Part shown: positions 6,728 to 8,127 of the stretch, piece by piece
Layout: every line of letters begins with the position of its first letter
How positions within the stretch are numbered: position 1 is the stretch's first letter
NCBI GenBank assembly: GCA_964492715.1
Contig: CAZBLK010000001.1
Coordinates: forward strand, 68,143 to 132,142
Source of the DNA: an uncultured Defluviitaleaceae bacterium
GTDB taxonomy: Bacteria; Bacillota; Clostridia; Lachnospirales; WRBF01
Reading direction: 5' to 3'
DNA: 64,000 nt
Notes under the pieces: generated by a model
Database searches by the model: none
The model's input: only the letters and a program-made list of their open reading frames with translations
What the model was told of the DNA's origin: nothing
Position numbers and translations under genes: made by a program

Positions 6728-8044
6728 CTACAAGTAGGTAGACTTTAATTTATAAGAAAAGACATTTTGCTCAGCGATTTGTGCAAAATGTCTTTTCTTA
6801 TATTTTATGATGTTAAAACACTTCTGTTTGTTACACTCAATATGTATTGACGGTGCAGAAGCCTTAATTTTAACACCGTATTTTGCACCATGTTTGAAAA
6901 TTACCGGGTCTTCAAGCTTCATTTCATCAAGCTGTGGTGTTACAATTCCGTAGCCTTTTCGGTGAACTTCTTCTAAAGCATATTTAACTTTGTCGTACTC
7001 TTTTTTAGCTTCTGACAAAAGCTTTATAGTTGAAATTAGGCGGTATTCGCCATCAATTTCCATTCCTGTAGTTTCTGATAAAATTTTGTAGAAAAGACTG
7101 TCGTCTACTGCAACTTCAATTGAAGCAGAGCCTTCTCCTAAAGAAATTCTGTCTATGTAAGCTTTTTTAACATACTCGTTTTCTTCCATGCCAATGATAC
7201 ATTCTTTCATTTCACGGAGCTTTTGAGCGTTTTGCAATATGTCTTTTACTACTTTTATCATGCTCTTTTTAAGCCAGTGGTCAATTGACAAAGTTTCAAT
7301 CCATTTTGGAAAGTTGATGCGCACTTCCAAAATTGGGAATTCGTAAAGAACTTTTTCCAAAATGCTGTTTATGTCCTCTGCTTTTAGCTGTGCACAGTTT
7401 ACAGAAATTACAGGCACGCCGTAGCTTTCAGAAAGTTCACAGCGTAGCTGCTCGGTTTCTGGAGCGTATGGCTTTACTGTATTTAAAAGCATAACAAACG
7501 GCTTGTTAAGTTCTTTTAACTCTTTAATTACCCTTTGCTCGGCCTCTATGTAATCGCCACGTTCAATGTCGGTAATTGAGCCGTCTGTTGTTAAAACAAT
7601 ACCAATTGTGGAATGGTCAGTTATAACTTTTTTTGTCCCCATTTCGGCAGCTTCGATGAAAGGAATTTTTTCTTCAAGCCAAGGCGTTGAAATCATGCGA
7701 GGTGTTTCTCCGTCCATATGCCCAATTGCGCCTGGTACAAGGTAGCCAACACAGTCTATCATGCGCACTTTAAAGCTTATGTTGTCTTCAAGGACAATTT
7801 CAACAGCCTCGTTTGGAACAAACTTTGGTTCGGTTGTCATAATTGTTTTTCCTGCGGCGCTTTGAGGAAGCTCGTCTTTTGCACGCTCACGGCTGTAGTT
7901 GTTTTCGATGTTCGGAAGGACAAGTAAGTCCATAAAACGTTTGATGAACGTGGACTTTCCTGTGCGAACAGGGCCTACGACACCTATGTAAATGTCTCCT
8001 CGTGTACGTTCTGATATGTCTCTGTAAAGGTCAAAGCTTTCCAT
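6728..8044 (-). CDS. spoIVA: stage IV sporulation protein A, 5' segment; reading frame interrupted near 6838 (last 34 codons unrelated)
   Basis: Start MESFDLYRDISERT after RBS aaggagg. Walker A GPVRTGKS. SpoIVA-like through ...KASAPSIHI, then ECNKQKCFNIIKYKKRHFAQIAEQNVFSYKLKSTYL and a stop. B. subtilis SpoIVA is 492 aa. Confidence 0.85.
   Translation of the reverse strand: MESFDLYRDISERTRGDIYIGVVGPVRTGKSTFIKRFMDLLVLPNIENNYSRERAKDELPQSAAGKTIMTTEPKFVPNEAVEIVLEDNISFKVRMIDCVGYLVPGAIGHMDGETPRMISTPWLEEKIPFIEAAEMGTKKVITDHSTIGIVLTTDGSITDIERGDYIEAEQRVIKELKELNKPFVMLLNTVKPYAPETEQLRCELSESYGVPVISVNCAQLKAEDINSILEKVLYEFPILEVRINFPKWIETLSIDHWLKKSMIKVVKDILQNAQKLREMKECIIGMEENEYVKKAYIDRISLGEGSASIEVAVDDSLFYKILSETTGMEIDGEYRLISTIKLLSEAKKEYDKVKYALEEVHRKGYGIVTPQLDEMKLEDPVIFKHGAKYGVKIKASAPSIHIECNKQKCFNIIKYKKRHFAQIAEQNVFSYKLKSTYL
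6751..6802. repeat. 20-bp perfect inverted repeat (hairpin) just inside the junction
   Basis: tataagaaaagacattttgc (6751-6770), 12-nt loop, gcaaaatgtcttttcttata (6783-6802). Confidence 0.9.
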
Positions 8045-8127
8045 TTTAAATTCCTCCTTAAATGTATCCATACACTTATTTATATGTAAAAATAAGGGTT
8101 TTAGAACTTTGGAATTTATGTTGACAG

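Follow-up and report, generated by a model that had tools for sequence, protein, structure and literature searches.

Results

A spoIVA gene fragment ends at the arm of an integrative element

We analyzed a stretch of 64,000 nucleotides (hereafter, the window) from an uncultured Defluviitaleaceae bacterium (contig CAZBLK010000001.1 of assembly GCA_964492715.1), in which the sporulation gene spoIVA breaks off near its 3' end at the border of an element that carries a gene for a large serine recombinase (LSR). The minus-strand open reading frame (ORF) at 6728..8071 encodes 447 amino acids from its first ATG, or 438 amino acids from MESFDL (P0001), the start codon that gene callers choose for this ORF. 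The element occupies window 1-6841, and the features around its border with spoIVA are as follows.

6842..8044, minus strand: spoIVA 5' segment, codons 1-401 of 492, with the ATPase domain and most of the middle domain (Pfam, TIGR02836, tblastn)
6728..6841, minus strand: element-encoded tail of the ORF, IECNKQKC...STYL and stop, with no SpoIVA homology
6820..6868, minus strand: attL, recognized by its arm motif, with the spoIVA (B) arm ...GCACCGTCAAT, the centre ACAT (6845-6842) and the element (P') arm ATTGAGTGTAACAAACAGAAGT (6841-6820, 22 bp)
6746..6807, no strand assigned: hairpin just inside the element end, with 28-nt arms at 6746-6773 and 6780-6807 that are 89% complementary and a 6-nt loop

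Pfam identified SpoIVA_ATPase (PF09547) at residues 10-246 (E=7e-122), and with the motif GPVRTGKS also present, the NH2-terminal Walker A ATPase is in place. SpoIVA_middle was matched at residues 248-411, covering only profile positions 2-165 of 179, and SpoIVA_C (PF20439) was not found in the ORF by Pfam, so that neither a complete middle domain nor the COOH-terminal domain is present. The NCBIfam model TIGR02836 (spore_IV_A) was matched over model positions 1-402 of 492, with 625.8 bits against a cutoff of 459.9. With the closest full-length SpoIVA (P0002, 492 amino acids) as query, the tblastn alignment covered residues 1-402 (window 8044..6839, 84% identity) and stopped there, and similarity to the P0002 locus at the DNA level ends at window 6837 by blastn. 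The final conserved residue is His-401, whose codon CAT lies at 6844-6842, and about 90-91 SpoIVA codons are missing. The ORF at 6728..8071 is a fragment of the spoIVA gene and does not encode a complete SpoIVA.

The remaining 36 codons of the ORF are unrelated to SpoIVA. Their opening residues (x-C-x-K-Q-K) recur in 20 other truncated SpoIVA homologues and are the translation of a recombinase-binding arm, ACAAACAGAAG, which accounts for the "CNKQK" at the start of the tail. Judged from its sequence, the tail arises by read-through into the P' arm and the end of the element and does not belong to SpoIVA. The hairpin at 6746..6807 probably serves as a terminator or insulator that separates spoIVA read-through from the cargo genes of the element. 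On the minus strand, the break reads GCACCGTCAAT-ACAT-ATTGAGTGTAACAAACAGAAGT, and the arm motif occurs only once in the window and L003, exactly where homology ends. We infer that the crossover took place at the CA at 6844-6843, within the codon for His-401.

The Logan assembly of SRR10912415 (L001/L003, 13.9 kb), which is independent of the window and reaches 5.8 kb beyond its left edge (window position 1 being L001 position 8157), matches the window without a single difference over the full 8,157-base overlap, junction included. Given this identity and the same type of junction in many genomes, the spoIVA break is not the product of chance or of an assembly artefact, the latter having been left open in an earlier reading of the DNA alone (the sequence-only reading). 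The same reading had proposed that SpoIVA homology is lost late in the minus-strand ORF and gives way to an unrelated tail, that 85-90 codons are absent, and that the truncation marks the junction of an intervening element. Pfam, TIGR02836, tblastn and blastn bear out the loss of homology, the deficit agrees with the value measured here, and the LSR gene starting at window 183, together with an element at the same codon in relatives, supports the junction. The tail is indeed without SpoIVA homology but is not arbitrary, given its shared arm, and the hairpin is real but longer than the 20 bp that had been reported for it. We saw no close relatives that have the same tail but lack the recombinase or the arms.

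The same element family is integrated at this codon in relatives

The LSR gene lies at the left edge of the window.

1..183, minus strand: LSR, first 61 codons, with the remainder to the left of the window (L003 4316-5950)

The complete LSR comprises 544 amino acids, contains the Resolvase (PF00239), Recombinase (PF07508) and Zn_ribbon_recom (PF13408) domains expected of an LSR as well as the catalytic YARVST motif, and matches the integrase family phrog_95 (E=3e-118). Its best matches among the curated NCBIfam families are CcrC/CcrB and XisF, all far below cutoff. It is 59-63% identical to recombinases that adjoin spoIVA 3' pieces and 72% identical to its closest relative, that of locus L120. 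Two properties of sporulation gene-intervening elements are therefore seen in the window: the element encodes its own site-specific recombinase, and it breaks the coding sequence of a mother-cell sporulation gene, at spoIVA codon 401.

Another 47 or so loci, including that of Ruminiclostridium papyrosolvens C7, have an element of this family at the identical His codon. We refer to this family of small, nonphage integrative elements, with an LSR of ~547 amino acids, as class A. In 26 GTDB species-representative genomes and 17 metagenome contigs, the stop codon of an LSR gene whose product is 50-63% identical to that of the window overlaps the His-Met-Ile codons of spoIVA, and the spoIVA 3' piece (residues ~399-492) follows directly; the best match among the GTDB representatives shows 63% identity. 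The Logan contigs L002 and L090 have the same arrangement of LSR gene and 3' piece. In the canonical relatives attR reads ACTTCTGTTTGTnCCnnACAAT-ACAT-ATGATAAGAGC. The consensus attR is ACTTCTGTTTGTnCCnnACAAT-ACAT-ATGATAAGAGCAGAT, and its left arm is the inverted repeat of the attL arm of the window. The attL architecture of the window is shared by 14 relatives, with the inverted copy at their attR.

In-silico deletion between the two CA dinucleotides restored an ORF of 487-493 amino acids at every one of the 14 loci that contain both pieces of the gene, among them those of R. papyrosolvens C7 and Marasmitruncus massiliensis. The rejoined ORFs read ...SAPSIH(M/L)IRADIETE..., and the elements at these loci measure 3.5-10.3 kb. 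The att sites span ~48 bp, and the reconstructed attP has perfect 16-bp outer inverted repeats flanking ACAT. Near-identical alleles exist with and without the element, the 3' piece P0121 differing from the intact P0003 at 3 of 91 residues. Stand-alone proteins of 78-157 amino acids that consist of SpoIVA_C only are also numerous, with examples in R. papyrosolvens DSM 2782 and R. sufflavum DSM 19573. Taken together, the attL and attR patterns and the existence of alleles that carry or lack the element are the hallmark of site-specific integration by an LSR (attP x attB), with a predicted crossover at the CA of the His codon. We therefore consider it almost certain that the element in the window belongs to a widespread family of integrative elements and has integrated into the His-401 codon of spoIVA.

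Several loci depart from the common arrangement. In L018, L106, L107 and L112, the element is integrated in the opposite orientation, with the LSR gene converging on the spoIVA 5' piece and the centre reading ATGT on the LSR strand, in keeping with the rule by which LSR integration takes its orientation from the central dinucleotide alone. In L033 (11560-11720; a 60.7-kb contig of a Lachnospiraceae metagenome-assembled genome), the LSR gene is followed by an apparently intact attP (P arm-ACAT-P' arm) instead of attR, which suggests that this copy is unintegrated or resides on another replicon. L174, a 124-kb predicted viral contig from IMG/VR, has at its very end a related LSR gene (54% identity), the tail of which resembles a P arm, so that its target lies out of view; a search of IMG/VR for an intact attP pattern was negative. 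The spoIVA 3' piece of L035 (11600-11720) ends after 17 codons, and in L031 (11600-11700) the P arm is followed by ACAG and sequence other than spoIVA; both copies appear to have decayed or been retargeted.

A second insertion site lies nine codons downstream

Of the 120 closest cluster representatives of SpoIVA, 20 break off at the same His codon, and their tails begin with x-C-x-K-Q-K (class A). Another 14 are cut nine codons further downstream, after LIRADIETE (codon ~410), and have a conserved tail of their own; we refer to these as class B (P0028, P0038, P0055, P0074, P0078, P0079, P0082, P0084, P0088 and others, with loci L172 11300-21317 and L173). About 29% of the closest representatives (34/120) are thus split, and the split copies occur in Defluviitaleaceae, Ruminiclostridium, Oscillospiraceae and Lachnospiraceae, cultured strains included. 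The class B element exceeds 10 kb, and its genes include those for AAA_14/DUF4143, AAA_35 and CHAT-domain proteins, with the recombinase gene lying outside the sequence in view.

Two loci, L008 12150-12330 (JGI 3300038395) and L120 1750-1900 (termite-gut contig Ga0123355_10354988), have a spoIVA gene with both interruptions. No more than nine spoIVA codons (LIRADIETE or IIQANIETE) separate the class A attR of these loci from a class B junction tail (VLKYNMK...DVEYLLC or LLMYKMNVTTEW...AFRLVA). Given this nine-codon micro-exon between the two junctions, spoIVA at these loci would be in three pieces. At a further locus (L184 1-1345, from Logan SRR8334329), an LSR of another lineage, 43% identical to that of the window, directly borders a 3' piece of spoIVA; the junction again falls at the ATACAT His codon, with a different arm, …CATTTCGTAATAGATAATACAT. 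Distinct recombinases appear to converge on one site.

The second junction is missing from the window and its left flank

Every related LSR ends in ...TSVCxxxY(I/T), which is encoded by the P arm and followed by attR, and this is also true of the closest relative, in L120. The LSR of the window instead ends in ...RKVFIERV*, its last ~10 codons, which are arm-coding in all relatives, being replaced by a new tail of seven codons. Past the gene lie a terminator-like hairpin, a promoter region, a gene for an M28 peptidase and genes for an ABC-2 transporter. In canonical form, the recombinase-side arm would read ACTTCTGTTTGT...ACAT and be followed by LI[RK]ADIETE. No second recombinase arm was found beyond attL with up to three mismatches in the window and the 13.9-kb Logan contig, nor did a regular-expression search of the same sequences find the LIRADIETE micro-exon or the COOH-terminal hallmark NEGxGGLIC. 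SpoIVA COOH-terminal coding sequence was not detected by tblastn in the window or in the 5.8 kb to its left. The window and these 5.8 kb therefore contain attL only, whereas both junctions and a restorable ORF were recovered at all 14 relative loci described above.

The best COOH-terminal database matches included no convincing 3' fragment from this sample or assembly, although this is weak evidence because the search seems to skip long proteins. Three candidates for the 3' fragment of this genome, P0122, P0135 and P0241, were rejected, all of them being from other samples. With regard to a host or element origin of the peptidase and ABC genes, the three closest spoIVA loci (P0002, P0003 and P0006) have no flanking genes in common with the window or among themselves, the M28, ABC-2 and UbiD blocks lack close homologues in the 180 other loci, and GC content and skew show no mark at the element boundaries. 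The sequence after the LSR gene was also considered as a decayed P arm and rejected, given that 10/21 to 11/24 matches correspond to chance level.

The sequence-only reading had predicted a minus-strand 3' fragment of spoIVA just past the recombinase gene and had proposed that the split gene is rejoined by excision. The tblastn search of the 5.8 kb beyond the window contradicts the former. The latter holds for relatives, in which in-silico excision rebuilds the gene, but not for what can be seen of this copy, which has no 3' piece over the stretch searched; its rejoining by excision is unproven and probably wrong.

Explanations for the state of this copy

On balance, we favor the explanation that the copy in the window has recently degenerated and become immobilized, with attR having been lost by deletion or rearrangement. 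A single event of this kind that removed attR would most simply explain why the LSR tail is replaced and the 3' piece missing, and, with attR lost, spoIVA could not be rebuilt from this locus. Decay is also evident elsewhere in the family, as in the curtailed 3' piece of L035 and the broken LSR ORF of L120. Several points weigh against degeneration. The LSR ORF (with YARVST present), the gene for a small conserved protein described below, the P' arm and the 5' ORF of 401 codons are each intact, as would be the case if the damage were very recent or if the system remained functional by way of a distant attR. The sequence read for the missing junction, the window and 5.8 kb, is part of a 204-kb contig, and a 3' piece fused to a longer ORF would escape the protein search, full-length SpoIVA proteins being absent from its output. 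The intact parts would be expected of a developmental switch that still works, with attR and the 3' piece further to the left and extra DNA between the LSR gene and attR, such as a second element or a tandem, composite or class B element, so that a larger or double excision would rebuild spoIVA. The doubly interrupted genes of L008 and L120 provide a precedent for such an arrangement, and the sequence GTTTTT plus ATTGAGCGAG after the LSR gene weakly resembles the start of a P arm fused to the start of a P' arm, as in a decayed internal attP, a suggestive likeness (p~0.02) that is not significant after multiple looks. However, the LSR gene adjoins attR at each of the ~47 canonical loci, with no composite element whose attR lies at a distance seen among them, the 5.8 kb to the left of the window contain no mobile-element genes or arm motifs, and L008 and L120 both retain the class A attR directly after the LSR gene, which the window does not. 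We consider a working switch of this kind rather unlikely. Still less probable, in our view, is the broader proposal that spoIVA is a hot spot for several recombinase lineages, with some genes assembled from three pieces by two recombinases and that of the window rebuilt by a larger composite or two-step excision, although the double interruptions, the second insertion site and the L184 lineage on which it draws are firm at the level of sequence.

If the joint of LSR tail and peptidase gene were an assembly chimera, a canonical attR and the 3' piece would follow the LSR gene in the real genome; misjoining inside conserved recombinase sequence could have arisen from related elements in the mixed community. 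The metagenome sample does contain relatives (SpoIVA P0006 is from the sister run SRR10912416), and many related LSR genes exist in similar samples. Yet the Logan contig, identical to the window across their overlap, continues from the LSR gene into the peptidase gene without interruption and is reported in two samples, on three contigs with the methyltransferase gene. The divergence begins at the very end of the LSR gene, which is its least conserved part, and not in a conserved block, and the LSR tail forms a clean ORF end followed by a terminator. A chimera is accordingly quite improbable. Many truncated SpoIVA calls in databases might also suggest an ordinary pseudogene or a naturally short SpoIVA that arose by point mutation, frameshift or lineage-specific domain loss in the absence of a mobile element. 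In the window, however, homology stops abruptly at a single nucleotide and does not resume in another frame, the break is followed by a recombinase arm common to elements that carry the missing 91 codons at their other end, and other truncated calls, the 34 class A and class B representatives mentioned above, are themselves element junctions. From these sequence relations, this last explanation is effectively refuted.

Gene content of the element

The cargo genes and promoters between attL and the LSR gene are as follows.

6636..6664, minus strand: sigma-70-like promoter TTGACA-17-CATAAT, matching at 11/12 positions, ahead of the cargo operon (before the UbiD gene; consensus scan only)
5181-6617, minus strand: UbiD-family decarboxylase (Pfam, gene calls)
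4313-5230, minus strand: UbiA-family prenyltransferase (Pfam, gene calls)
3741-4325, minus strand: UbiX-type flavoprotein (Pfam, gene calls)
2854..3756, minus strand: NMT1/THI5-like lipoprotein, a substrate-binding protein (Pfam)
2562..2780, minus strand: small conserved protein with the core EIKLLINKRLYEKGIITEEMYT, candidate recombination directionality factor (homologues in 46 element loci)
2565-2593, minus strand: sigma-70-like promoter TTGACA-17-CATAAT, inside the 3' end of the small gene and before the ABC ATPase gene (consensus scan)
1892-2482, minus strand: ABC transporter ATPase (Pfam)
1149-1895, minus strand: ABC transporter permease (Pfam)
282..1085, plus strand: class I S-adenosylmethionine-dependent methyltransferase, on the strand opposite to the other cargo (Pfam)

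Its own predicted promoters suggest that transcription of the cargo probably takes place in vegetative cells and does not depend on spoIVA. The set of UbiD, UbiA and UbiX proteins and methyltransferase may resemble late steps of quinone (futalosine-type menaquinone) biosynthesis, which would be an unusual load for an integrative element. Cargo varies from element to element and is not phage-like in those examined. The minimal element, of 3.7 kb, carries a ParE toxin and antitoxin. The 6.3-kb element of the cultured cellulolytic strain R. papyrosolvens C7 (L011 5380-11650) encodes AgrB, a GHKL sensor kinase and a GH53 galactanase-dockerin protein, a combination of quorum-sensing and cellulosome cargo on a spoIVA-intervening element. 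Elsewhere in the window, a plus-strand ORF of 228 amino acids at 19424-20110 joins an MntA-like nucleotidyltransferase to a HepT/HI0074-like domain and looks like a fused type VII toxin-antitoxin pair.

The small protein of ~45-60 amino acids, with the core E(I/V)KLxINxxL(Y/F)EKGxITEEMYxKAKE, is encoded at 46 loci, usually immediately upstream of the LSR gene, and has no match in Pfam, NCBIfam or the annotated PHROG families. Upstream of its gene in the window, at 2762-2769, is a CATAAAAT box that resembles the -10 element of mother-cell sigma factors, for which CATAnnnT is the -10 shape in the case of both sigmaE and sigmaK. CATAnnnT was present upstream of the small gene in 26 of 40 nonidentical regions, compared with a mean of 10.6 and a maximum of 19 in 500 shuffles, and the boxes cluster 64-104 nt ahead of the conserved core. 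We tentatively propose that the small protein is a directionality factor under sporulation control, although the case for a sporulation promoter is statistical and weak and the role as directionality factor is a guess.

Discussion

The spoIVA elements are most readily compared with skin, which likewise is a serine recombinase element within a mother-cell sporulation ORF, that of sigK (SpoIVCA/Skr in Bacillus subtilis, CD1231/CD1234 in Clostridioides difficile; PMC5025042, PMC4191935). In both cases the recombinase gene lies at one end beside a gene fragment (here, in the relatives), the att sites are short with inverted-repeat arms, precise excision restores or would restore the reading frame, and directionality is expected to depend on a small accessory factor (PMC5025042, PMC4191935). 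The target differs, in that spoIVA encodes a sigmaE-dependent structural ATPase and not a sigma factor; the elements described here measure 3.5-10 kb and have no phage genes in those examined; and their excision is proposed from sequence and analogy. The LSR is only distantly related to characterized serine recombinases, as judged by curated-family models.

Among other known systems, gin in gerE of Bacillus cereus ATCC 10987 (GirC/GirX) is also not a prophage and likewise combines a serine recombinase and a small accessory factor with unrelated cargo (PMC5595907), but it extends over 28.6 kb and has three recombinase genes, whereas the elements described here have a single LSR, another small protein and another target. 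SPbeta in spsM (SprA/SprB), vfbin in spoVFB, vrin in spoVR and yin in yabG similarly place mobile DNA in a gene used only by the mother cell, and the directionality factor of SPbeta is under the control of a sporulation sigma factor (PMC4191935, PMC5499854, PMC10747680). These elements are prophages or their remnants, however, in contrast to the metabolic cargo (UbiD/UbiA/UbiX and ABC transporter) of the element in the window. The heterocyst elements of Anabaena (the fdxN element with XisF, and those in nifD and hupL) are likewise excised developmentally from genes of a terminally differentiated cell, and XisF is an LSR, the NCBIfam model of which gives a subthreshold match to the LSR of the window (107 bits against a cutoff of 375), but the phylum, developmental program and targets differ.

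The interrupted sporulation genes named in papers up to 2023 are sigK, spsM, spoVFB, spoVR, gerE and yabG. We found no mention of spoIVA as an interrupted target in the searchable literature, in agreement with the sequence-only reading, which did not count spoIVA among the classic examples. The target gene spoIVA and the pair formed by the LSR and its putative partner protein thus appear to be new. Also unusual are the presence of two insertion sites nine codons apart, the interruption of some spoIVA genes at both, and the occurrence of at least one other LSR lineage at the same His codon.

For the family as a whole, integration at a defined dinucleotide, inverted-repeat arms and exact restorability of the ORF in relatives can be read from sequence. 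The analogy of skin, SPbeta, vfbin, vrin, gin and yin (PMC4191935, PMC5025042, PMC5595907, PMC10747680) makes developmental excision likely as the normal behavior of the family. The single hint in the sequences that it would take place in the sporulating mother cell is the enrichment of CATAnnnT ahead of the small gene. According to this model, the LSR and the small protein, the latter as directionality factor, would be expressed in the mother cell and would recombine attL with attR at the CA dinucleotide. The element would be released as a circle, and intact spoIVA would be rebuilt only in the terminally differentiating mother cell, with the chromosome of the forespore and spore retaining the interrupted gene. 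The rebuilt attB would join GCACCGTCAATACAT to YTNATHMGNGCNGAYATH (or, as a pattern, to YTNATH...), and the attP of the circle would join the P arm to ATTGAGTGTAACAAACAGAAGT. Given that spoIVA is a sigmaE-dependent, mother-cell-specific gene (PMC5025042, PMC517825), excision would have to come early in the mother-cell program.

If the spoIVA elements are excised in this manner, the list of rearranged genes would gain an early-acting structural gene, which would constrain the timing of excision. To our knowledge, SpoIVA is the only coat-morphogenetic protein conserved in all endospore formers, and it is made early, under sigmaE, in the mother cell. Annotation pipelines and predictors of sporulation would score genomes that carry such elements as lacking an intact spoIVA. 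The compact LSR, together with its att sites and small partner protein, constitutes a new and well-defined integrase system, and the cultured strains with a split spoIVA (Ruminiclostridium being among the split lineages) make the idea of developmental excision directly testable. The locus in the window may record the failure of such a switch, in which loss of attR would turn a reversible interruption into a permanent loss of sporulation.

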